From Gammaproteobacteria bacterium (GTDB taxonomy: Bacteria > Cyanobacteriota > Vampirovibrionia > Vampirovibrionales > JAJTHC01): DNA of 64,000 bases. Each line of letters begins with the position of its first letter. The stretch's first letter is position 1. A program made the translations under genes and the position numbers. The DNA is taken from assembly GCA_040375445.1 (NCBI GenBank), contig JBEISK010000001.1, positions 49,144 to 113,143 of the forward strand, written 5' to 3'. This document shows positions 8,680-63,762 of this stretch, piece after piece. A model generated the notes under the pieces. The model was given only the letters and a program-made list of their open reading frames with translations. It searched no databases and was not told the DNA's origin.

Positions 8680-9231
8680 ATGCCCTTAGCACTGCAAGAT
8701 CATACCATTGACGGCGTTCTACTTCTCGATGGCGTTCGCTTTCAAGACGACCGCGGCTTTTTCACGGAACTCTACAACCAAGCCCGTATGCCTGCTGAAC
8801 TCCCCGCCTTCGTGCAGGACAATGCGTCCCTGTCGCTTGAAAAAGGCGTGCTACGGGGCCTGCACTTTCAAAAAGCTCCCTACGCACAAGGCAAGTTCGT
8901 TACGGTGTTACAAGGCTCCATTTGGGATGTGCTGGTCGATTTACGAAACGCCTCTGCTACTTTTGGCAAGGCTTACGGTGTGGAACTTTCCGCCGAAAAC
9001 AAGCACCAGCTCTATATCCCTGAAGGCTTTGCGCATGGTTTTGTTACCTTAGAAGCCAATACCCTTGTGCATTATAAAACCACGGCCCCGTATTCGCCGT
9101 CGCATGACAGCGGGATTCGCTGGAACGACCCCACCCTTGCCATTGATTGGCACCTAGAAGGAGCGTCCCCCATTCTTTCGCCCAAAGATGAAGCCCTGCC
9201 CTTCTTTGACGCCCAAGCGGCCTACTTTTAA
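8680..9231 (+). CDS. rfbC: dTDP-4-dehydrorhamnose 3,5-epimerase
   Basis: 183 aa. [28 protein letters not shown] and IPEGFAHGF are typical of RmlC. Confidence 0.85.
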
Positions 9232-10398: not shown

Positions 10399-11292
10399 AT
10401 GAAAAAACGTAAAGGCCTTATTCTCGCAGGCGGTTCAGGGACTCGTTTGCACCCCTGTACGCTGGCGGTGTCGAAGCAATTGCTCCCCGTATGGGACAAG
10501 CCGATGATCTACTATCCCCTTTCGATGCTGATGAGTGCAGGCATTCAAGACATTCTACTCATTAGCACGCCTCACGATTTACCCCTCTTCAAACGATTGT
10601 TGGGCGACGGATCGCAATACGGCATCCACCTAGAATACGCTGAACAACCCGAGCCGAAGGGTTTGGCGCAAGCCCTCACCATTGGCGAAGCCTTTTTAGA
10701 TGGGCATCCGTCTGCCATGATTTTGGGTGACAACTTGTTTTATGGGGCGACCTTGCCGACGCAACTTCAGCACATCAACCAACAAAGCAAAGGGGCTACC
10801 GTCTTTGCCACACATGTGGATGATCCGCAACGCTACGGTATCGTGACGCTGGACGCTACAGGAAAAGCCACATCGATTGAAGAAAAGCCCGAGCATCCCA
10901 AGAGTTCATGGGCGGTCACAGGCTTGTACTTCTTTGATGAAGAAGCGCCTGCGTATGCGAAAAGCTTGGCTCCTTCGGCTCGTGGCGAATTTGAAATCAC
11001 CGATGTCAACCGTCTGTACCTAGAAGCAGGCACCCTGAATGTGGAAGTTTTGGGGCGTGGTTCGGCGTGGTTTGACACAGGCACGCACGCGTCGTTATTG
11101 CAGGCGTCTCAATTTGTGCAAGCCATTGAAGATCGTACAGGCATTAAAATCGCCTGCTTAGAAGAAATCGCCTATGAGCAAGGCTTTTTGGATTTGAACG
11201 CTTTAGAAAAGCAGGCGAATGCCTTGGGTAAAAGTGCGTATGGGCTTTATTTACAGCGTTATGCGAAAGAACAGGGATTACTTCACGTTTAA
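10399..11292 (+). CDS. rfbA: glucose-1-phosphate thymidylyltransferase
   Basis: GLILAGGSGTRLHP plus a full-length RmlA-like sequence. Confidence 0.9.
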   Translation: MKKRKGLILAGGSGTRLHPCTLAVSKQLLPVWDKPMIYYPLSMLMSAGIQDILLISTPHDLPLFKRLLGDGSQYGIHLEYAEQPEPKGLAQALTIGEAFLDGHPSAMILGDNLFYGATLPTQLQHINQQSKGATVFATHVDDPQRYGIVTLDATGKATSIEEKPEHPKSSWAVTGLYFFDEEAPAYAKSLAPSARGEFEITDVNRLYLEAGTLNVEVLGRGSAWFDTGTHASLLQASQFVQAIEDRTGIKIACLEEIAYEQGFLDLNALEKQANALGKSAYGLYLQRYAKEQGLLHV

Positions 11293-11347
11293 GGTTTCTA
11301 TTTCATGGTATGATAAAACCGTTATACCCACTAATGATGATAGCTAT

Positions 11348-12358
11348 ATGAGCGAAACGCCCTATTCCTACAATTTCAATGAACTCCTTGCCGATGTGGA
11401 CTCGTGGCAGGGGAATCCGTCACACTTAGCCATCATCGCAGGGGAAGGCACCTTGCCTTTGCAAGCGGTGAAAGATGCCAAGCGTCAAGGCTACAAGGTC
11501 TATGTCTTTGTGATTGGCGGCAATTGGCGAGAAATGGCTCGCTATAAGCCCTTTGCCGATGTCGTGGAAGCCTATCACTTAGGGCAATTGCGACGTATGA
11601 TGAACGTCTTCCGAGGGCATGGGATTAAATATGTGTGCTTTGCTGGAAAAGTCAACAAATGGCTCTTGTTTACGCAACTTAATTTGGACAGCCTTTCCTT
11701 ACGCCTGCTTCAAAAGATGCCTCGTAAAAATGACGATGCCGTCATGCACTACATCATCGAAGGCTTCGCATATTTGGGCATGGAAACCTTGCCTCAAGTG
11801 AAGTTCATGCAAGATCTGTTTCAGCCTGAAGGGATTTTAGCCGAAGGGCATCGCTTGACGGGTGACGATTGGCTAGGGATTTGCTTTGGCTTTGACACCG
11901 CAAAAGCCATGGCGGCTTTAGATGTGGGTCAAACGGTTGTGGTGAACGACACCATGGTCATTGCCATTGAAGCCATTGAAGGCACCGATGAATGCTTGAA
12001 ACGAGCAGGCAAGCTTCAACGCAAGCAAGGGGGCATCGTCGCTAAAGTCGCCAAACCCTTTCAGGACGATCGCTTTGATGTGCCTGCCGTGGGCTTACGT
12101 ACCTTAAAAATCATGCGAGACAACGGCTTAAACATTTTGGTGACCGAAGCAGGATCGACCTTGTTTCTAGACTCATTCGATCGCATGAAAGCCTATGCCG
12201 AATCGAATCATTTGACTTTGCTTTCCGTGACTGAAGCAGGGCTTCAGATGTGGCGAGAACGCTTGGCTCAACGTCAAACCAAGACAAACGCAACCCTTTC
12301 CCCTGCCTCATTAGAAGACGCGACGTGTGAAAAAGGATCGACTTATGTCTACGAATGA
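11348..12358 (+). CDS. lpxI: UDP-2,3-diacylglucosamine hydrolase, LpxI type (DUF1009)
   Basis: N-terminal LAIIAGEGTLPLQ and overall similarity to LpxI. Sits directly upstream of lpxB. Start chosen at ATG 11348 (MSETPYS), while the ORF track extends further 5'. Confidence 0.5.
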   Translation: MSETPYSYNFNELLADVDSWQGNPSHLAIIAGEGTLPLQAVKDAKRQGYKVYVFVIGGNWREMARYKPFADVVEAYHLGQLRRMMNVFRGHGIKYVCFAGKVNKWLLFTQLNLDSLSLRLLQKMPRKNDDAVMHYIIEGFAYLGMETLPQVKFMQDLFQPEGILAEGHRLTGDDWLGICFGFDTAKAMAALDVGQTVVVNDTMVIAIEAIEGTDECLKRAGKLQRKQGGIVAKVAKPFQDDRFDVPAVGLRTLKIMRDNGLNILVTEAGSTLFLDSFDRMKAYAESNHLTLLSVTEAGLQMWRERLAQRQTKTNATLSPASLEDATCEKGSTYVYE

Positions 12359-28162: not shown

Positions 28163-29458
28163 CTAAGCGTGATAACGAGCAGCCACTTGGGCTTTAAATT
28201 GACGATCGATGAAGTGACAGAAGCCACCGACACCACAAATGCCGACGAGTGCTGCAAGGGCGAGATAGATCCAACTGCCTGCGAAACCGTCCGCCAAAAA
28301 ACTAAGGCTAAACTGCTTGGCAAAGCCGAGCATGAACAAGTTAATTAAAGAAAGCGGAATGAGGAACTTCCAGCAGAAGCCCATGAGCTGATCGGGCTTT
28401 AAGCGAGGGAGTGTGCCTCTTAAAAGCATCGCAATATAGATGAAAATGTAGGTTTTGCTGAGCATCCAGAAGATTTGTTCACCGTTTACGAGCAAAGGCT
28501 TAATGGCAGGGAGCTTCACGGCTTGAATGATGGCATCCGCTAAGCCGTAGTTCTGCATGAAGGTGCCTCCAAAAGGCGAGGTGTATCCGCCAAAGAACAA
28601 CGCCACGGTTAGAGCAGACAATACAAACAAGCCCGCATATTCTGCCAAGAAGAAGGTCGCAAACTTCATACCCGAGTATTCGGTGTTATAACCGCTGACC
28701 AGTTCGCTTTCCGCTTCAGGTAAATCGAACGGCACACGGTTGACTTCGGCAATTGAAGCCACATAGAATAACAAGAAGCTTAATGGTGTGAGCATGATGC
28801 CGTACCAGTGAAGGACTCCTCCGCTTTGGGCTTCGATAATAGTCTTCAAGTTACCGCTACCCGTGAATAAAACCACGCCAATCACCGATAAAATCAGAGG
28901 AACTTCATAGCTAATGGCTTGAGCCGCACTACGCATCCCACCCAGCAACGAGTATTTATTGTTCGATGCCCAACCTGCAAGCACGAGTCCGATCACCGAA
29001 ATAGACGATAACGCAAACAGAACAAGCAAGCCCAAAGGCAAGCTTACCCCAATGAGGCTCTCGCTAAACGGCACAATCGCATACAAGGCAAACACAGGGA
29101 ATAAGAAAATCGCAGGAGCCAAGGTGAACAAGAACTTGTCCATCACAGGGGTCATAATATCTTCTTTAGTCAGAAGCTTAACGCCATCGGCGATGGTTTG
29201 AAACATTCCGCCAGGCCCGACTCGGTTAGGGCCTTTACGTTGCGTAAACCATGAAAGGACTTTACGTTCCATTAAAACCATGACCACCGCAGCGGCTTGA
29301 CCCATGACGGCGACCATACCAAACAACACCACGCCCGTTAAGAAAATAGGCACAATATCAGGCAATTGATGCCACAATTCAATGGCTTTCATAAAGTGAA
29401 AGCTTGGATCTAGAAGTTGTGCAAGTGTGGGGATTTCAAAGCTGGCAGTCGCGTTCAT
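28163..29458 (-). CDS. nuoH: NADH-quinone oxidoreductase subunit H (with N-terminal extension)
   Basis: ERKVLSWFTQRKGPNRVGPGG... matches the NuoH/ND1 core. Confidence 0.9.
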   Translation of the reverse strand: MNATASFEIPTLAQLLDPSFHFMKAIELWHQLPDIVPIFLTGVVLFGMVAVMGQAAAVVMVLMERKVLSWFTQRKGPNRVGPGGMFQTIADGVKLLTKEDIMTPVMDKFLFTLAPAIFLFPVFALYAIVPFSESLIGVSLPLGLLVLFALSSISVIGLVLAGWASNNKYSLLGGMRSAAQAISYEVPLILSVIGVVLFTGSGNLKTIIEAQSGGVLHWYGIMLTPLSFLLFYVASIAEVNRVPFDLPEAESELVSGYNTEYSGMKFATFFLAEYAGLFVLSALTVALFFGGYTSPFGGTFMQNYGLADAIIQAVKLPAIKPLLVNGEQIFWMLSKTYIFIYIAMLLRGTLPRLKPDQLMGFCWKFLIPLSLINLFMLGFAKQFSLSFLADGFAGSWIYLALAALVGICGVGGFCHFIDRQFKAQVAARYHA

Positions 29459-29491
29459 AGGATTGCATCTCTTTCTTTGGGCAAACAGGGC

Positions 29492-30775
29492 TTATCTGTC
29501 TACTTCAGGCATAATAACGTCGAGGCTACCAAAAATAGCCATTAAATCGGAATACATATGACCCTTCATCAATTCTGGAAGAGCGGACAAATTGCTGAAA
29601 GACGCCCCACGCCACTTGATGCGATACGCCTTAGGCGTGCCGTCGGTAATAATGTAGCAACCCAAAACACCACGAGGCGATTCCACAAAGTTGGACGCTT
29701 CACCAGCGGGTGGCTTATAGGTCAACAAATTGATTTTCTTGCCCATGGTATCCCAATCCTTGTCCCAAGGAGGCACAACGATTTCAGGATTTTTCTTGGC
29801 TTCTTTGGTTTTGGCTTCAACCTCTTTTTTCAGAATGGCTAAAGCACCGCCGTCTCCACCAGGGATTTTGTCAATGCACTGTTTGATGATTTTAATGGAT
29901 TCACGCATTTCTTGCACACGCACCAAGTAACGAGCATAGGTATCGCACCCTGTATGCGTCGGCACATCAAAATCCAATTCGTTATATACTGAATAAGGAT
30001 TCGTTTTACGAAGGTCTAAGGCTTCACCTGTGGCTCGCAAAGCAGGACCCGTCACGCCGTATTTAAGGCAGAACTCTTTGCTCATAATGCCGTGACCCTT
30101 GGTTCGATCCATTACAATGGGGTTCTTGGTGGCAACCGCTTCGTATTCATCCAAACGATCGGGGAAATGATTACAGAAGGCACGCACTTCTTCCAGCCAG
30201 CCAGCAGGCAAGTCATTGTTGACGCCTCCAAAGCGGAAGTAGTTGTACATCATTCTTGCCCCAGTGAGGTTTTCAAAAATCGTGAAGACTTCTTCACGAT
30301 CTCTAAAACACCAGAAGAAAGGCGTAGACGCCCCTAAATCAAGCAAGAATGTTCCAAACCACAACAAGTGAGACGTAATACGGTTTAATTCAAGACAAAT
30401 CACACGGATATATTCCACACGCTTAGGCACAGGAATATCGGCAATTTGCTCGATGCAATTGACAAAAACCAAGTGATCGTAAAACGATGAGAGATATTCC
30501 ACACGGTCAATCGTCGGCTGATATTGAAACAAGGAACGACTTTCGCCCATTTTTTCCTTGGAGCGATGCAAATAACCAATCACAGGCTCCATTTCTTTAA
30601 CAACTTCACCATTCAGCGTGGTGACCAAACGCAAAACGCCGTGAGTTGAAGGATGCTGAGGTCCGATATTGACGACCAAATCATTGGTGTCAAACCCTGT
30701 TTCTATAGAAACACCCGGTAAGTTGCTTTGCAATTCAGGATTCAATTCTTTAACAGACATCATAGTAGTTTCCAA
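29492..30775 (-). CDS. nuoD: NADH-quinone oxidoreductase subunit D
   Basis: 427 aa with NuoD/49 kDa-like sequence (GPQHPSTHGVLRL...). Confidence 0.9.
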   Translation of the reverse strand: METTMMSVKELNPELQSNLPGVSIETGFDTNDLVVNIGPQHPSTHGVLRLVTTLNGEVVKEMEPVIGYLHRSKEKMGESRSLFQYQPTIDRVEYLSSFYDHLVFVNCIEQIADIPVPKRVEYIRVICLELNRITSHLLWFGTFLLDLGASTPFFWCFRDREEVFTIFENLTGARMMYNYFRFGGVNNDLPAGWLEEVRAFCNHFPDRLDEYEAVATKNPIVMDRTKGHGIMSKEFCLKYGVTGPALRATGEALDLRKTNPYSVYNELDFDVPTHTGCDTYARYLVRVQEMRESIKIIKQCIDKIPGGDGGALAILKKEVEAKTKEAKKNPEIVVPPWDKDWDTMGKKINLLTYKPPAGEASNFVESPRGVLGCYIITDGTPKAYRIKWRGASFSNLSALPELMKGHMYSDLMAIFGSLDVIMPEVDR

Positions 30776-31330: not shown

Positions 31331-32018
31331 GACGGTGCTTTATATTGCCTCTTACTAATCCTAATTCGCCACGCTCAAGCATTTCTTCGACATTGTATCC
31401 ATCTTTTTGGATGCCCCAATGTAAGAAGTCCGCCTCAGTAGCTCCTTCTAACGGCACTAAACAATCGTCCTCATCCAAACGCACACGGGCAATATGCTGT
31501 GCGGTACGCTTGCGACGTTCAGCTAAAGTTTCTTTACGCATTTTCTTTTGCAGTTGGATCAACGCATCCAATAAGGCTTCAGGACGTGGTGGACAACCTG
31601 GAACATATACATCAACAGGAATCACACGATCCACGCCACGCACGACTGAATAGGAGTCGTTTTCATACATCCCGCCTGTGACCGTGCAGGCCCCCATAGC
31701 GATGACATATTTAGGTTCAGCCATTTGCTCATATAAACGCAATAAAGCAGGTGCCATTTTATACGTAATGGTGCCTGCGGTAATCATTAAATCGGATTGT
31801 CTTGGGGTGGCACGAAAGGCTTCTGAACCAAAGCGAGCAATGTCAAATTTTGGAGCAGATGCCGACATCATCTCGATCCCACAACAGGAGGTTGCAAAGG
31901 TCATCGGCCAAACCGAATTGCTTCTTGCCCAGTTGTAGACGGCATCGACCGTTGTGACGATAATTCCGCTACTTTCTAGCATATCTTGCCACGCATCAGA
32001 AACGAGGTTTACTGCCAT
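31314..32018 (-). CDS. nuoB: NADH-quinone oxidoreductase subunit B (with about 60-aa C-terminal extension)
   Basis: [15 protein letters not shown] and [10 protein letters not shown]...[11 protein letters not shown]. Start at ATG 32018, preceded by AGGAG. The longer ORF to 32129 overlaps nuoA. Confidence 0.85.
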
Positions 32019-32368
32019 CTTAAGGCTCCTTTTCGCCACGCATACACAATACCGAGTGCCAAAATGCCGACGAAAACCAGCATTTCCACCAACGCAAAGA
32101 CGCCCACTTTCTCGTACGCCACAGCCCAAGGAAACAAGAAAATCGTTTCAATATCAAATAAGATAAAGAGCAAGGCATAGAGATAAAACTTCACATCAAA
32201 GCGAATACGTGCTTCGCCATAAGGCTTCATGCCTGATTCATAGGTTTCATGCTTGTAAGCGGTGGGGTGCTTAATTTGAACCAACTGCGAAATAGCAAAA
32301 AGCAAAAAAGGAAACAATCCGCAAAAGAGCAGAAGGACGAAAAATACGGGGTATCCAGTTAAGTGCAT
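32009..32368 (-). CDS. nuoA: NADH-quinone oxidoreductase subunit A
   Basis: 119-aa three-TM protein (...[15 protein letters not shown]...). First gene of the operon. Confidence 0.85.
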
Positions 32369-32485
32369 TTGGCGTATTCTCTTTTCTCACAATATCTATA
32401 TGACTAATTAAACATTAAATATCAAAAATGGTCAAACATTTCACGCCAATTAGCACAAATATAGCAGCAAATAGGTTTTATATAT

Positions 32486-33138
32486 ATGCTAGGGACAATC
32501 AATAGGCGGATTCAAGCATTTAATTTAGGGTACTATCTTACAATGGGAAACTTTATTACCAGAACTTTTGATCTAACTACAGCAATTATAAAGAAGGGGG
32601 GGGGGCAACTGTTCACTTTTTTAAAGAAGAGTTCCCTCGTCAACTTGCTAACCGTCAACCAGAAGCAATTGCCTTTGCGGGATTGTCTGCTCATCATTGT
32701 TATGAAATAGGGCATGCTGTTCTTGCAAGGAACATGCCTGAAGTGGGTATAGGTGTTGGTAAGCTTATTGCTTCTAAATGGGGGTATATGGCATTTGAGA
32801 ATCGTCAGCCTTTGATAGAGTTTGCTAGAGCAGCCCTAACCTCTACAGGAAGACAAGCAATAGGAGATTTTTCTCAATCTATTGGGAAAGACGTACGTCA
32901 TTTTTATAGTGGTCAAGCTTCCCTCACAAAGACATTTGTTCAAAAAGGGGGAATAGACTGTATGCAGTATGCTCTTGATGTACTTCAGCTTTATATTCAC
33001 CTTTATATGAAATCAGGCATGACTAATAATGTGAATCTGGAAAAACTTTTATCACAGGTTCTACTAGATGAAAAAACTATTGCACGAATTAACAGAATGA
33101 CACCAGAACAAATGAGTAAATTGATAGAAAGGCTATAA
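32486..33138 (+). CDS. hypothetical protein in a low-GC islet; reading frame is split at a G10 homopolymer (frameshifted or phase-variable gene)
   Basis: ATG-initiated ORF 32486-32710 runs through the G10 tract (KKGGGQ). A second frame is open from 32572 to 33138 with no ATG before the tract. A +1 G would fuse them into a roughly 217-aa protein. Codon usage (AGA, ATA) and low GC differ from the flanks. Confidence 0.5.
32596..32605. repeat. homopolymeric G10 tract
   Basis: Ten consecutive G residues inside the coding frame. Confidence 0.95.
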
Positions 33139-33256
33139 AAAATCACCCTGATTCTGTAGATGCTGTGGACAAAAAGGCTATTATTGATATGTTTATAGAC
33201 ATAAAATCAGGTTTTTAAGGGATGTGACTTAATTTTATTACAATAATACTTAGAAG

Positions 33257-35233
33257 ATGAGAGTTACCTTATCTATCCACTTATTGTATTGCTTCGCATT
33301 AGGGACGTTTCTATTTTTAGACGCCCCTGCTTTTGCGGTGAACCTGCAAGGGGTAGACGACTTGCCCTTGACGCAGTTCCCTACCGCTGATGCTCGTTTG
33401 AACGAACTTCTTAAAGAAGGCGATGTGTTTCGATCCGAAAGCCTTTTAAATGCCATTATTGAACGTGAGCCGACGAATTGGCGAGCCTTGGTCAATTTGG
33501 CATATTTACAGCAAAAGCAATGGCAATACCCTACGGCGAAAGTCTTGTTGATGCGTGCCAAAAGTATTGTGCCACAAGAGCCAACCGTAATAGGTGAGCT
33601 AGGGTATCTCTATTTGAAATGGGCAAGCCAAACCGACCTAAAACCTGCCCCCCCAGCCGATGCCTTAAGCCAAGCCGAACGCCTTTTAAAACAAGCCTTA
33701 ATGATGCACCCGAATGATGCGATGACCCCACTCTATTATGCGGAATTGTGCTTGTTTAAGGACAAAAACTCGCCTGAAGCCAAGACCTACGTCAAACAAG
33801 CTTTAGCGATGCACCCAACGCATCAACCTGCTTTGTTACTGGCGTCTCACCTCTATCAAGAAATGGGCTTACGATCTCAAGCCAAGCAAGCCTTACTTAT
33901 GGCGTATGACTTGGGCAGTAAAAATCCTGCGGTACTAGATGCCATGTCTCGTACGCTGGCGAAATTGGAACGCCCTGAAGATGCCATTCATTATGCCAAT
34001 GAAGCGACCTTGTATGATGTCGCCGAATCGCCTGAACGCCTGCGTTTAAAAGCAGAGCAGTATGAAAAATTGGCGGACCCGCAAAAGGCATTAAAGATAT
34101 ATCAAGCCCTTGTCCCCTATTTCCCTAAATCTCCTGAATTAAGTCTGAAGAAAGCTAGCTTGACGGAACAAGTTTCGGGAACGGAGAAGGCGACCCCTGC
34201 CTTTCAAGAAGCGATGCGTTTGAATCCCGATTTAGTGCCAAATTACAAAGCAGAAGCGAAAGCCTTGATCATCAAAGAATCGTTGGATGCGGCTAAAGCC
34301 CCCTTGCAATCAGTCTTACGGCTCACGCCTGAAGACCCTCATTTGCTTAGCTGGTTGAGCATTCTTTACTACCGCAAGTTGTTGCTTGGGCAATCGGTGG
34401 ATAAAGACGAATTAGCTTCGGTGCAACGCCTGCTAAAACGCTCGCAAGGCACGACGCTAAAAATGAGCTTACCCCAAGGCACGAACGCCCTAAGCGTCCA
34501 GCCTTTGCCTGAACAGCGGACGTTGGAAGCCTTACGTTTAAAGCTAGTCGCTCAAGACGGCGTCTTAGAAGCAGAAGATCTCAAGCAATTAAGCCATCTC
34601 AAAATTTTTGGAGCCACCCCTGTGATTCGTGCAGAATCGGCGTTTTTATATGGGGATATACCCACGGCATTCGCCGAACTTAAGCGATTGCCCCCGCCTG
34701 CTAATGCGGAAGACGCCCTTGATTTAGCTCATCAATGGCGGTTGATGCAATTTATCCCGGGAGCCTTAAAAGCCTTTCAATGGGCGTATACGGCAAACCC
34801 TACCGATGAAACGCGTCGGCGGATTGTGGAACTTGAACAAGTGGACGTCCGCATTGAAGAGCGTCTCCATACCTTGCAAGCCGCGTTGCCTCAAGGGGTG
34901 AAAAACATCAAAAAAATCAAGCAAGCGGCAATGCAAAAGCAATTGAATCAGCTCAAAGAAGAAGCCAATACGGCGTTGCAGTTGAATCCCAGTCATCCTT
35001 TAGCGTGGGAGCTTTTGGCGGATGTTGCTGAGCGTGAAGGGCAGTGGGGGCGTGCCGTTTTATTATGGCAAGAAGCCAAAATGCGAGATAGCGAAGGGAA
35101 GGATCAGGCGAGAGTCCACCAACGCCTCGTTAATGCGAAGTATCAGGCGTCAAAAGCGGGCATCGTACCGTTGTCGTCGCTGATGCAAGGAAATCGTCAA
35201 GCTGTGCCTGCGAGTGTGGGCTATAGCTTTTAA
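33257..35233 (+). CDS. secreted tetratricopeptide-repeat (TPR) protein
   Basis: N-terminal signal peptide (LLYCFALGTFLFLDAPAFA). Multiple TPR-like 34-aa repeats (LAYLQQKQWQY..., ALAMHPTHQPALLLASHLY...). Confidence 0.8.
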   Translation: MRVTLSIHLLYCFALGTFLFLDAPAFAVNLQGVDDLPLTQFPTADARLNELLKEGDVFRSESLLNAIIEREPTNWRALVNLAYLQQKQWQYPTAKVLLMRAKSIVPQEPTVIGELGYLYLKWASQTDLKPAPPADALSQAERLLKQALMMHPNDAMTPLYYAELCLFKDKNSPEAKTYVKQALAMHPTHQPALLLASHLYQEMGLRSQAKQALLMAYDLGSKNPAVLDAMSRTLAKLERPEDAIHYANEATLYDVAESPERLRLKAEQYEKLADPQKALKIYQALVPYFPKSPELSLKKASLTEQVSGTEKATPAFQEAMRLNPDLVPNYKAEAKALIIKESLDAAKAPLQSVLRLTPEDPHLLSWLSILYYRKLLLGQSVDKDELASVQRLLKRSQGTTLKMSLPQGTNALSVQPLPEQRTLEALRLKLVAQDGVLEAEDLKQLSHLKIFGATPVIRAESAFLYGDIPTAFAELKRLPPPANAEDALDLAHQWRLMQFIPGALKAFQWAYTANPTDETRRRIVELEQVDVRIEERLHTLQAALPQGVKNIKKIKQAAMQKQLNQLKEEANTALQLNPSHPLAWELLADVAEREGQWGRAVLLWQEAKMRDSEGKDQARVHQRLVNAKYQASKAGIVPLSSLMQGNRQAVPASVGYSF

Positions 35234-57460: not shown

Positions 57461-58222
57461 TTGCCCAATGGGCATTTAAAAAAAAGCGAAGACTCATCCC
57501 TTATGTATACTAATTTATGTAATGATTTTGTTAAACAACCTGAAATAAAAACCGTTGTATGGATCTTGCCTTGTTTAGCGTTTGATATCGTGTATCAACT
57601 TCAAAAAAAGATTCTAAGTGATAAAATAGCCAACCCCACTTTTCCTGATGTTTTATTAATTACGTCTCATCCAGCATGTTACAGCTTAGGGCGTGCATCT
57701 TCTGAATTTGAAAAAAATGCCAGCTATCCTTTTCCTAGCTTTGAAATTGAACGTGGGGGCCATTTAACATTTCATCATCCACAACAAGTTATTTTATACC
57801 CACTTTTTAAACTAAAATCACCTAATGTTCATGCTCATTTAAGGCGTGTACTAATTTGGGGACAAACAGCCTTAGCTAATTTAGGAATCTTTAGCGATAT
57901 AGACGGACAGGGTTCTGGCTTATGGCTGGATGAATCCAAAAAGATCGCTTCTGTAGGTATTGCGATTAAGCGTTGGGTGAGCTACCACGGGCTTGCTATC
58001 AATGTCTCTGTGGATGAATCTATGTGGCATGACTTACCTGAAGGAATTCATCCTTGTGCATTAGCAAAAGCGATACCCACGAACTTATGTGATATTAATG
58101 AAACACTGACTCGTTCTCAAGTTGTAGAAGCTTTAATTGAAGTTTTTAAAAAAGATGAAAGCTTAGGTTTGATTCAATTTAAAGATATAAAAGAATTTAA
58201 CGATAATTATAAAAAAGAATAA
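57461..58222 (+). CDS. lipB: octanoyltransferase (lipoyl(octanoyl) transferase)
   Basis: ERGGHLTFHHPQQVILYPLFKL and KIASVGIAIKRWVSYHGLAINVS match the LipB core including the catalytic Cys/Lys region. The true start is probably an internal Met (MYTNL...). The gene is AT-rich. Confidence 0.85.
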   Translation: MPNGHLKKSEDSSLMYTNLCNDFVKQPEIKTVVWILPCLAFDIVYQLQKKILSDKIANPTFPDVLLITSHPACYSLGRASSEFEKNASYPFPSFEIERGGHLTFHHPQQVILYPLFKLKSPNVHAHLRRVLIWGQTALANLGIFSDIDGQGSGLWLDESKKIASVGIAIKRWVSYHGLAINVSVDESMWHDLPEGIHPCALAKAIPTNLCDINETLTRSQVVEALIEVFKKDESLGLIQFKDIKEFNDNYKKE

Positions 58223-58522: not shown

Positions 58523-60610
58523 TTAGCGACTACTATAAAAACCAGGTTTTGGAGCAGCTGGAAGTGTATAAGATGTTCTTTGAAAATCTGCTGGCGGAGG
58601 CGGAGGGCTTTTTGACTCTATCGCTTTATAGCTTGAAATAGCTTTTTTTTGCTCCATAGTGTTCGAGGATATATTGGGTTTTGATACGTTTGCATTGAAG
58701 TGTTGCCCGTTGTCTACTATACGAGGTGTTAGCATAATAATGAGTTCTTTGTTTTGATGAGATCCGTCGTAGGTATTGCTTAGTCCTCTAAGAAAAGGGA
58801 TTTCACCCAACACAGGAATTTTATTATTACGTTGACGGTCATTACTTTGGGTCAACCCTGCAATAACAAAACTTTGCCCTTCTTTAAGAATAACATTTTC
58901 AGTTAACCAAGCTCGTGAAGAAATAAGTTGAATATCTCCTGTGCTAGAGGTTTGAGGGAATGAAAATTGTGGCTGTACCATCATGGAAATATCGCCATTG
59001 GCACCAATTCGGCTCCGAATATGTAAAACAATACCTGCAGATGCCTGTTGAGCAACTCGAGCAACGATATTGTTATTTTGATCACGTACATCGGTAAAGC
59101 CCTGAATCACTTCATCTTCAATTTTAATGGTGGCATCTTCATTGTTAAGTAGTAAAACAGAAGGACGAGAAATCACCTTAAGCTTACTTTCTGAGTGTAT
59201 AAAATTTAGTATGGCACTAAAGTTAGATGTATTTTGAATGGGATTTTTAACAAAACTAGCGATAGAATTCCCATTTAAATTGGCATTAAATCCTAAGGTG
59301 ACTTGCTTCAGCCGTGCTTGAATGGAAGGTGTGATGATTTTATCTAAACTATCAGCAAGCTCAATAACAGCCATTTCAACATAGACTTGTTCACGTTGCC
59401 TGTCGAATTCTTGAATAAATTCGTCGGCTTTCGCCAATTGTTGAACCGTGGCAAAAATGGTAATGGTGTTAAGGCGGGTATCGGGTAAAATAATAGGTCC
59501 GTTACTTGAAACAGTAGCTTGTGCGTTTTGAATAGGTCTTGAACGTAAGGTATGATCGTTTGATGTGCCTTGCCCCTCTTTTAAGCCTTCACTTGTCAGG
59601 GGGATGGGATTTCCTGTGGGCGTACCTATATTCGCACCACCTGCTGCACCACCTGCCGCACCGCCTGCCGCACCGCCTGCCGCACCGCCTGCCGCACCGC
59701 CTGCCGCACCGCCTGCCGCACCGCCTGCCGCACCACCTGCTGCACCACCTGCCGCACCACCTGCCGCACCACCTGCTGCACCACCTGCCGCACCACCTGC
59801 CGCACCGCTAATCATAATGGGGGGCGTAGAACCATTCGAAAAAACGGTAGCGGTTAAGGCGCTAGCGACTTCATCGGCTCTTTGAAAGTTTAATCGCCAT
59901 GTTTTACTGGCACGTTGAACGTCAATTTCACTAACTAAGCGAGCGGCTTCTTGAGCTTCTTGAACATCTGTTCTTAGCATTACCCGATTGGTCATGGGGT
60001 CAGCAAGGGCAATCGCAATATTTTGTGAATTGCCGCTTGCTGATCCAGCACCGGAACTCGTATTTGTACCTTCTGCTGAAGCCGGAAAACTTCCTCCTTG
60101 TGTTTGAGAAGAGCCTCCTGCGGTATTTTGGGCATAGGAAAAAAGGGTTGCATTTAAATAATCCGCCACATAGGTAGCTGGCAAATGTTTAACTTGAATG
60201 AAATGTGTTTCTTGTTGTTTGATTCCATTAGACGTCGTCGATTGTCGAGTGGTGACAAATAACGTACCCTGTTCAACATGGTAGTACAATTTACCCATTT
60301 GCTTTAAAGAAAGTAAAACATCTTCAACCGAAACGCCTTTAAAATCAAGGTTAACGAGTCGTGTTAAGTCATTGCCTAAGACAATGTTAAATTGAGCTTG
60401 TGAAGCAACGGCTTTAAGGGCTTCATCCATAGGAATGTTATGTAAGGTTAAATTAAGGGGTGTTTTAATGTTAGGCAGTTTAAGTTCTTCAGCAAAGGCG
60501 TTTTGAAAGGGGGCTATTAACATCAAAACACTTAAAAAAATTATAAAACTATGCGAAAAACAGGTCTTCTGTTTTAGAGACAAGCAAAGTAAGCTTACAG
60601 ATTTGAGCAT
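58523..60610 (-). CDS. secretin (GspD/PilQ superfamily), paralog B, with (GGAA)12 low-complexity insertion
   Basis: N-terminal signal/TM. N0-like domain (LNLTLHNIPMDEALKAVASQAQFNIVLG...VNLDFKGVSVEDVLLSLKQMGKLYYHVEQGTLFV). C-terminal secretin domain (...VISRPSVLLLNNEDATIKIEDEV...KIPVLGEIPFLRGLS...LIIMLTPRIV). The ATG directly follows the TAA of the upstream secretin. Confidence 0.85.
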   Translation of the reverse strand: MLKSVSLLCLSLKQKTCFSHSFIIFLSVLMLIAPFQNAFAEELKLPNIKTPLNLTLHNIPMDEALKAVASQAQFNIVLGNDLTRLVNLDFKGVSVEDVLLSLKQMGKLYYHVEQGTLFVTTRQSTTSNGIKQQETHFIQVKHLPATYVADYLNATLFSYAQNTAGGSSQTQGGSFPASAEGTNTSSGAGSASGNSQNIAIALADPMTNRVMLRTDVQEAQEAARLVSEIDVQRASKTWRLNFQRADEVASALTATVFSNGSTPPIMISGAAGGAAGGAAGGAAGGAAGGAAGGAAGGAAGGAAGGAAGGAAGGAAGGAAGGAAGGANIGTPTGNPIPLTSEGLKEGQGTSNDHTLRSRPIQNAQATVSSNGPIILPDTRLNTITIFATVQQLAKADEFIQEFDRQREQVYVEMAVIELADSLDKIITPSIQARLKQVTLGFNANLNGNSIASFVKNPIQNTSNFSAILNFIHSESKLKVISRPSVLLLNNEDATIKIEDEVIQGFTDVRDQNNNIVARVAQQASAGIVLHIRSRIGANGDISMMVQPQFSFPQTSSTGDIQLISSRAWLTENVILKEGQSFVIAGLTQSNDRQRNNKIPVLGEIPFLRGLSNTYDGSHQNKELIIMLTPRIVDNGQHFNANVSKPNISSNTMEQKKAISSYKAIESKSPPPPPADFQRTSYTLPAAPKPGFYSSR
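59634..59806. repeat. 12-bp tandem DNA repeat (GCCGCACCGCCT and variants, about 14 copies), in-frame, encoding (GGAA)n in secretin B
   Basis: Read directly from the sequence. The unit length is a multiple of 3. GC-rich repeats in an AT-rich gene. Confidence 0.9.
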
Positions 60611-62562: not shown

Positions 62563-63762
62563 TTATACATTTCCTAAGTCATTGAGCAAGCTTTCGATAC
62601 TAGATTCTTCGCGACTTGCATTAGGCATCGATTTCTGAGGGGGAGTACTTGAAATATTATTGTTTCTTGAAGAACTTGTTTGAGATGAAGAGGCACTAGA
62701 CAGTTCTACACGACTCTTAAAACCGTTAATCATTAGGTATAGGTAGGATCCTTTTACAGAAGTCAACGTAAAGTAGTTTCCGCCGTATTCAAAAGAACTG
62801 CCAATACGTTTGGAAAGCATAATGTTATTAGTTTCGTTGAGGAGTTTAAGTAAAATGGTGGCTGGTTTACGAGGGTCTTCATTGGAAACCACACCGACAA
62901 ACTGAATTAAGGATTCTACAGGTACACCCAAACTAGTTTCAACAGGCTTACTTGGAAAGGGTTTGACGTTTTGTGGTTTTTCAGGATTTGAAATAACTTG
63001 GGTATTTTTTTGATCATTTTGTTTGTCTAAAAGATTTTTCAACCACTCTAGCTCAATAAGAGGTTTAAAAGGGTCATTGCGAAAGGGGGCGACTTTGGGT
63101 TTTCTCTTAGAAGTACTTGTTTCAAGACTATTTGCTACCGCAAATAAGGCGTTGGCCTTTAAGCTTTCTTCACTTCCATCGAAATTTTCTTCAGGCAAGG
63201 AGGCTGCTAAAAGGGTTTGATTTTGAGTCGTTTCTTCAGGGGGGGGTTTGATGAGATGGGTCATCCCTACCACCATTAAAACGAGGGCGACCCCTAATGA
63301 GGTTCCTGCAATAAAAAGGGCATTTTTCATACTTTTGTGTGGATCAATAAAGCGATTAAGTTGAGAAAAATAGCGTGTAATGGGATGCTGCCCTGCGGCG
63401 ATTTTTTCAGCTTCAAGGGCTTCCCATTCTAGTGGGGCTTGAACAAAATTAAGCATGGCAGTGAAATTTCGTTGGGCAGGAATAATCCCATAGCCCGGTT
63501 GAAAGGCTCGTGTTTTGGCGACATCATGCCACGAGGTGGAAGCCGTGCTAAAGGCACTGGCTTGACGAGGCAACTTATTTTGCAAAGGCGAACTAGACAT
63601 AGGGTAAGACTCTTTCACACCATTTTGGACTCTCTTACTGTTTAGTATAAGGAATAGGGGAGTCTTCTTGGGTTTTTGAGGTCTAATTTCCCCTAAAAAG
63701 CTTAAGCCAAAACGGGGGTTGAACAGGCGCGTTTGTAACCGTTTGTAAAAAAAGGGCATCAA
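62563..63762 (-). CDS. bitopic membrane protein with C-terminal secretin-interacting-like (GspC HR / PilP-like) domain; first gene of the secretin operon
   Basis: Single TM (ALFIAGTSLGVALVLMVVGMTHLI), Pro/Thr-rich linker, C-terminal beta-rich segment (ATILLKLLNETNNIMLSKRIGSSFEYGGNYFTLTSVKGSYLYLMINGFKSRVEL), Ser-rich tail. Promoter-like AT-rich region upstream. The real start is likely an internal Met. Confidence 0.4.
   Translation of the reverse strand: MMPFFYKRLQTRLFNPRFGLSFLGEIRPQKPKKTPLFLILNSKRVQNGVKESYPMSSSPLQNKLPRQASAFSTASTSWHDVAKTRAFQPGYGIIPAQRNFTAMLNFVQAPLEWEALEAEKIAAGQHPITRYFSQLNRFIDPHKSMKNALFIAGTSLGVALVLMVVGMTHLIKPPPEETTQNQTLLAASLPEENFDGSEESLKANALFAVANSLETSTSKRKPKVAPFRNDPFKPLIELEWLKNLLDKQNDQKNTQVISNPEKPQNVKPFPSKPVETSLGVPVESLIQFVGVVSNEDPRKPATILLKLLNETNNIMLSKRIGSSFEYGGNYFTLTSVKGSYLYLMINGFKSRVELSSASSSQTSSSRNNNISSTPPQKSMPNASREESSIESLLNDLGNV

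Follow-up and report, generated by a model that had tools for sequence, protein, structure and literature searches.

That homopolymers can drive phase variation is well established for host-adapted pathogens, and phase-variable (contingency) genes with intragenic G/C tracts are present in Neisseria, Haemophilus and Helicobacter. The closest described parallel to the locus presented here is the set of such genes in Campylobacter jejuni, with polyG/polyC tracts inside the reading frame (PMC3401435, PMC4965091). The locus resides in a stretch of 64,000 nucleotides (nt) from contig JBEISK010000001.1 (assembly GCA_040375445.1, positions 49,144 to 113,143), hereafter called the window, in which a low-GC islet with a single gene is situated between nuoA and the gene of a TPR-repeat protein. 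The islet gene contains a run of 10 G. With the C. jejuni genes it shares a G/C run of 7-11 nt near the 5' end of an open reading frame (ORF) in AT-rich DNA, a toggle between a full-length and a truncated product upon a change of 1 nt, and a tract length which varies among otherwise near-identical strains; the modal length of 9 in C. jejuni is in the same range. We consider it probable that this is a contingency gene caught OFF in the window, i.e., that the poly-G tract gates an acquired orphan gene by slipped-strand mispairing.

The G10 homopolymer, the proposed hypermutable switch, is located at positions 32596-32605 of the forward strand. By chance, 0.04 G/C runs of 10 or more nt are expected in 64 kb of the window's composition. 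An ORF with an ATG start (32486-32710, 74 amino acids, aa) passes through the tract. A second frame, one base back, is open from 32572 up to the stop codon at 33136-33138. Setting the tract to different lengths and translating from ATG 32486 yields 217 aa with 11 G and 216 aa with 8 G, compared to 74 aa with 10 G and 45 aa with 9 G. G11 and G8 thus preserve the frame (ON) and G10 and G9 break it (OFF); the window carries the OFF allele. Both halves of the gene are free of stop codons; the length of the tract is the sole frame lesion in the window. An earlier note on this DNA, made from the letters alone, had reported the G10 tract, the ORF 32486-32710, the other frame at 32572-33138 and a product of about 217 aa at 11 G, all of which was reproduced. 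It had further stated that the downstream frame has no ATG of its own. The extent of this frame stands, yet internal starts, a TTG at 32683 and a GTG at about 32743, had been overlooked. The public annotation calls only a fragment of 131 aa (P0001), the length of which places it at about 32743-33138.

The ATG at 32486, with which the earlier note had opened the gene, is present, yet it is probably not the true start. The N-termini of homologues (MGILNTVTKSLKLAIR, MNATINRLARLSGKLL and MGIYINRTAKLAGKLL) align with the pre-tract peptide of the window from a second ATG at 32543. Because the homologues begin at the equivalent position, the alignment suggests ATG 32543 as the real start and a product of 198 aa, with ATG 32486 as an in-frame upstream alternative. 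The N-terminal coding segment ahead of the tract then spans 32543-32595 on the + strand (MGNFITRTFDLTTAIIKK), and the tract is placed 53 nt past this ATG, about 18 codons into the ORF. Counted from here, the OFF products comprise about 55 codons at G10 and about 26 codons at G9. The premature stop of the G10 state is at 32708-32710 (+), 55 aa from ATG 32543 and 74 aa from ATG 32486. The main gene body extends from 32606 to 33138 (+), ends with the stop codon mentioned above and requires 11 G (or 8 G) to be read in frame. The family motifs HFFxxEFP, PEAxAF and KWxYM are located here. In the fused protein the peptide spanning the tract reads KKGGGATVHFFK.

The species of the window, here species 1, comprises three contigs, i.e., the window, L001 and L002. 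As everywhere in this study, the alleles are consensus sequences of metagenome assemblies. The Logan assembly L001 (run ERR9973199) matches the window at 100% over 4,231 bp and shares its G10; it may be built from the same reads. The ENA contig GROS21-1_SAMEA9561379 scaffold_623 (L002) aligns with the window over 12.7 kb at 96.3% identity. It has G11 and an intact gene of 217 aa, i.e., it represents the ON allele. The encoded protein, P0002, and the 131-aa fragment P0001 are the two members of the 90%-identity cluster of the islet protein. Throughout the 12.7-kb alignment of window and L002 the G tract is the only indel; A8 and C7 runs in this alignment have the same length in both. The earlier proposal of a phase-variable or frameshifted gene is thus supported by an intact conspecific ORF which differs by a single G.

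A G8 run at 63239-63246 of the window (C8 on the coding strand) served as a control. It is part of an ORF on the - strand (62563-63762) and encodes PPP in frame. The protein is hypothetical, 345-399 aa long and has no Pfam domain. Its 90%-identity cluster has five members of 345-398 aa, all full length, with no sign of switching.

The nearest relative of the islet protein, P0003, shares 37% identity with it (E=1e-21) and is from a second species. The FtsZ of this species 2 is MCX5921476.1, annotated as 'Candidatus Melainabacteria bacterium'; other members of its cluster are from 'Vampirovibrio sp.'. The gene call of P0003 is truncated. The peptide MGILNTVTKSLKLAIR begins at an ATG with AGGAG ahead of it, a poly-G tract follows 48 nt past this ATG, and beyond the tract the remainder of the protein is encoded in a different frame. 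The position of the tract is equivalent to that in the window (48 nt vs 53 nt past the ATG). Three alleles are seen. G8 is out of frame (OFF; L083, L084, L085), G7 is in frame (ON; L090, L092, L093), and G6, again, is out of frame (OFF; L091). The G7 product of L090 is the full 238-aa protein P0008, that of L092 is a 180-aa allele with a replaced 3' end, and the gene in L093 has an N gap inside. The contigs of species 2 are 98-99.9% identical. Compared pair by pair over about 3.2 kb, they nearly always show no indel other than the tract; three gap openings occur in some of the pairs with L091. L091 and L092, with coverage tags of 13x and 35x, carry k141 contig names and neighbouring ERZ accessions, which suggests that they originate from the same assembler and study; yet one has G6 and the other G7. 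Comparing orthologous loci, which the earlier note had named as a check, hence revealed a 37%-identical homologue with a tract at the same codon position and in three lengths.

The family is very small. A full HMMER scan of 1.84 billion representatives returned only four other relatives, P0003-P0006, and profile searches of a database of 5.8 billion proteins added only P0007. Scans of the metagenome_contigs and viral_contigs collections for more relatives confirmed none. Judged by these searches, the orphan family is tiny and comprises six lineages. In a third lineage, L088 (P0005), a frame-breaking G9 is found at a different site, around residue 80. P0004, P0006 and P0007 lack a tract, and their frame continues across the site without a break. 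Because these tract-less homologues read through and because their pre-tract peptide is homologous to that of the window, the fused frame is, according to the alignments, the ancestral gene. Orthologues with two ORFs and independent starts, which the earlier note had listed as evidence against its proposal, were not encountered. The neighbours differ from lineage to lineage: nuoA and the TPR gene in the window, an lpt operon and dapB in species 2, lepA in L086, and in L089 a hypothetical gene and, after it, a gene with a weak match to S8-type peptidases. L086-L089 have no genes in common with the reference loci. Since the gene neighbourhood is different in every lineage, the gene stands alone.

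Several further observations were made in the contigs of species 2. In L091 and L092 the 3' end of the gene is replaced, compared to L083, from about 480 nt into the gene, resulting in a protein of 180 aa with the C-terminus ...AGRIQVRSGPLGVERFLLESA. The downstream genes of L091 differ as well, with a rhodanese and a response regulator in place of dapB, and L084 has two YbjQ genes downstream. By these comparisons the species 2 gene occupies a junction prone to rearrangement. About 6 kb from the poly-G gene, L085 has a C11 run (11284-11294), 22 nt past the ATG of a hypothetical gene of 204 aa (11262-11876, +; MKVMIGFTPPPAIALG...). This gene is in frame in this contig, has no Pfam domain and is a second candidate for a phase-variable gene in species 2. 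Finally, L084 has a C8 run in an intergenic region (9091-9098), with a YbjQ_1-family gene about 100 nt downstream; this may be a repeat of the promoter type.

How might the switch operate? The poly-G tract, about 18 codons into the ORF, would gate expression. Slipped-strand mispairing during replication would alter its length. With G11 (or G8) the full protein would be produced (ON); with G10 or G9 translation would end after about 55 or about 26 codons, respectively, from ATG 32543 (OFF). We infer that tract changes are frequent, reversible and selected, i.e., that this is true phase variation, and that the product matters in a fluctuating interaction, e.g., contact with prey or phage. The contingency reading is adopted because the G/C tract is early, frame-toggling alleles exist in two species, other lesions are absent and the position is retained. 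Several of the properties by which contingency loci are commonly recognized are seen here: a G/C tract of at least 7-8 nt in the 5' part of the frame, a toggle by 1 nt, and ON as well as OFF alleles among near strains. Further, a tract is kept in the diverged homologue (37% identical), and a G9 is found elsewhere in L088; three lineages are tract-less. Selection for mutability is likely because a neutral run would be expected to have decayed across such diverged homologues.

Several points weigh against a selected switch. Every allele was read from an assembly consensus. Species 1 is known from three contigs only, and the independent tract mutations are few, at least one in species 1 and at least two in species 2. 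The product lacks a signal peptide, a clear transmembrane segment or a link to a surface structure, unlike most classic contingency genes. Lastly, the species 2 alleles with a replaced 3' end (L091, L092) fit a dispensable, possibly decaying gene.

Non-adaptive decay remains the main rival. In this case the islet gene would be a dying accessory gene, dispensable and being lost, and the homopolymer would be a mutational liability which acquires the commonest first lesion, not a selected switch. It is indeed an orphan, recently gained and without conserved neighbours. OFF alleles are common (G10 in two of three contigs of species 1, G8 or G6 in four of seven of species 2), and the 3' ends of L091 and L092 are shortened in addition to being replaced. 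Yet runs of G7-G11 occupy the same codon position in homologues of 37% identity, where a neutral run should be interrupted, and a separate G9 arose at another site in the third lineage. No allele has stops or other indels in either half, ON and OFF alleles coexist among near-identical sequences, and the conservation of the family reaches E=1e-21. Several disabling mutations and a loss of coding constraint, the marks of a pseudogene, are not seen, and the replaced 3' ends in species 2 are the one hint of decay. Decay is thus considered unlikely. Quite improbable is a sequencing or assembly artefact, i.e., a true length of 11 G and an intact gene which was split by a homopolymer miscall. Miscalls are common at homopolymers of 10-11 G on several sequencing platforms, and a sequence with 11 G does exist in L002. 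However, the window contig and L001, identical at 100% over 4,231 bp though possibly built from the same reads, both have G10, and other runs (A8, C7, C8) agree between assemblies. Moreover, the shorter, easily sequenced tracts of species 2 (G6, G7, G8) differ too, including those of L091 and L092.

Programmed recoding would turn the argument around. The out-of-frame arrangement would be the working genotype, and the full protein would be made via -1 ribosomal frameshifting or via slippage of the RNA polymerase at the G run. A -1 shift, or an mRNA with one additional G, does lead into the downstream frame of the window, a G run might in principle act as a slippery site, and OFF genotypes are frequent. 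Bacterial transcriptional slippage, however, is best documented on A/T runs. The shift required varies: G10 and G6 call for +1 nt, the species 2 G8 and the G9 of L088 for -1 nt or +2 nt, hence a consistent direction is not apparent. In-frame alleles exist in both species (P0002, P0008), and the out-of-frame arrangement is not fixed. The RNA downstream of the tract is unstructured (z-scores +0.78 and -0.71), i.e., a stimulatory structure was not found there. Recoding therefore has a very slim chance of being correct.

A more ambitious version of the contingency reading may be formulated. The tract would be a selected, hypermutable switch of the whole family on a mobile single-gene 'moron' which spreads by recombination among freshwater Vampirovibrionales, and the helical product would contribute to the attack on prey or to the susceptibility to phage. 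We regard this as speculative and rather doubtful. If true, Melainabacteria/Vampirovibrionia would have their first described contingency locus, with others in the same genomes.

The source organism was placed by NuoB. In a scan of species-representative genomes the best match, 100% at the aa level, was to the 'Vampirovibrionales bacterium' metagenome-assembled genome (MAG) L003, with about 94% nt identity in the nuo genes. The next matches were other Melainabacteria and Vampirovibrio MAGs. Because of this order of matches the organism is assigned to the Vampirovibrionales (Melainabacteria), i.e., it is an uncultured, non-photosynthetic relative of cyanobacteria by this marker; a chlamydial identity is ruled out by the same placement. 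Melainabacteria have been described as non-photosynthetic, and Vampirovibrio chlorellavorus preys on Chlorella and carries type IV secretion genes (PMC4451040).

The protein itself offers few clues. Profile searches against Pfam, NCBIfam, PHROGs, PADLOC and PDB sequences returned nothing significant. Neither a signal peptide nor a convincing transmembrane segment was detected (maximum 19-residue hydropathy 1.0-1.7), and the reading as a transmembrane or secreted protein was rejected on these grounds. The lack of a signal peptide and of a recognizable domain had been noticed earlier from the sequence alone. The protein is basic (isoelectric point 9.1-9.7 across the family) and the 198-217-aa chain is predicted to be all-helical. 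A single-sequence AlphaFold model was poor (pLDDT 42), and Foldseek gave no fold match better than E=0.77. A role in the interaction with prey or phage is a plausible guess, no more.

What is the origin of the islet? It covers 888 bp (32369-33256) and has a GC content of 35.7%, compared to a mean of 45.9% in the window, which puts it into the lowest 2% of all 888-bp windows. In the fused ORF the GC content at third codon positions (GC3) is 27%, vs 42-50% in nuoA, nuoB and the TPR gene. Seven of its 13 Arg codons are AGA/AGG (2 of 33 in the TPR gene) and seven of 17 Ile codons are ATA (3 of 19). The low GC content and the use of AGA and ATA codons had been pointed out before, and the counts confirm both. 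On the left the islet is flanked by nuoA (NADH dehydrogenase chain 3; 32009-32368, -), the first gene of a divergent nuo operon (Pfam PF00507, E=8.5e-38; 99% aa identity to nuoA of L003). The adjoining intergenic DNA (32369-32441), presumably the nuo promoter and leader, retains homology to that of the sister MAG L003, with a clean local alignment up to about 32411 and patchy similarity up to about 32441. From 32442 to 33256 extends a lineage-specific, low-GC insert with one gene on the + strand; its boundaries are approximate. On the right follows the gene of the TPR-repeat protein (33257-35233, +) with an N-terminal signal-like segment and matches to Pfam TPR_19, TPR_2 and others. According to tblastn it is positioned beside nuoA across Vampirovibrionales (L003-L007).

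The divergent nuoA-TPR arrangement is kept in L003 and in four other Vampirovibrionales (L004-L007), where the two genes are spaced by about 230-320 nt and the islet gene is not between them. Measured from the start of nuoA to the conserved 'VDDL' codons in the TPR gene, L003 has 315 nt and the window 984 nt. The net gain is 669 nt, roughly the size of the islet gene. A tblastn search with the 217-aa protein over the loci of the window species and L003-L007 gave matches only in L001 and L002. This absence from the same junction and the atypical composition support the foreign origin suggested in the earlier note, i.e., the 0.9-kb stretch is best read as a recently acquired single-gene islet in Vampirovibrionales. 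Convincing terminal inverted, direct or target-site repeats flanking the insert were not found, nor were relatives in phage, plasmid and IMG/VR collections. By these searches the islet bears no signature of mobility. Rfam yielded no match to a non-coding RNA or riboswitch in the islet, and a scan for promoters and terminators gave nothing above chance.

The comparison with L002 bears on the spread of the islet. A block at 32262-33381, consisting of the islet and about 100 bp of each flank, displays 2 substitutions and the G indel in 1,120 bp. Outside this block the divergence amounts to 3.2% in the nuo genes and to 8.6% in the TPR gene. Because the block is near-identical while the flanking genes differ by 3-9%, a recent spread of the islet by homologous recombination, or a gene-specific sweep, is suggested. 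Other short blocks of low divergence exist between window and L002, e.g., at about 29236-29985, and the genomes are thus mosaics. As a side observation, the N-terminal signal-like segment of the TPR protein (33257-33352) has strongly diverged, reading MRVTLSIHLLYCFALGTFLFLDAPAFAVNLQG in the window vs MRLDDFRPLHLQFVLYMSVLYISMPFLPAFALSLQG in L003, and the identity in the mature part is about 89%. The inserted islet adjoins this fast-changing start of the TPR gene.

Two features of the window outside of the islet are mentioned in passing. A secretin gene (58523-60610, -; PF00263, PF03958) contains at 59633-59806 a 12-nt tandem repeat of 14.5 copies with 95% matches. It encodes an (AAGG)n Ala-Gly stretch, possibly a length-variable linker. 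The lowest GC content of the window, 31-33%, is found at 57461-58222 (+). This patch encodes the catalytic domain of a LipB/LplA-type lipoyl or octanoyl transferase (PF21948), i.e., a housekeeping-type gene of atypical composition.

Full-text literature searches returned no reports of homopolymer phase variation for Vampirovibrio or Melainabacteria. The natural ON and OFF alleles described here are visible in public metagenome assemblies of two species, and the mechanism would thus extend to an uncultured, probably predatory, free-living lineage. A lesson for annotation is at hand as well: counts of 'pseudogenes' in MAGs may hide switchable genes, as the public call of a 131-aa fragment illustrates. 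Further, an uncharacterized helical family is marked as likely to be under fluctuating selection, e.g., in interactions with prey or phage, and a concrete gene is offered for a population analysis at the level of reads.

Where does this leave the locus among the known systems? Two overlapping frames joined at a homopolymer are also a property of dnaX, of IS3-family transposases and of mxiE of Shigella. Unlike these, the islet gene has in-frame alleles, an inconsistent direction of shift and no stimulatory RNA structure. In the pmp genes of Chlamydia pneumoniae, differences in poly-G length between strains interrupt or restore the ORF. The comparison with pmp, drawn in the earlier note, holds as an analogy, yet the organism is a member of the Vampirovibrionales and no chlamydia, and the islet protein has no Pfam family, hence no autotransporter domain. 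From the C. jejuni genes the locus differs in its host, an uncultured freshwater member of the Vampirovibrionales and not a host-adapted pathogen, and in being known from assemblies alone. It differs also in its product, a helical protein without an export signal instead of a surface-structure enzyme, an adhesin or a subunit of a restriction-modification system. In summary, the switch proposed for the islet gene is of a known kind, here in an unstudied lineage and in an uncharacterized protein family.
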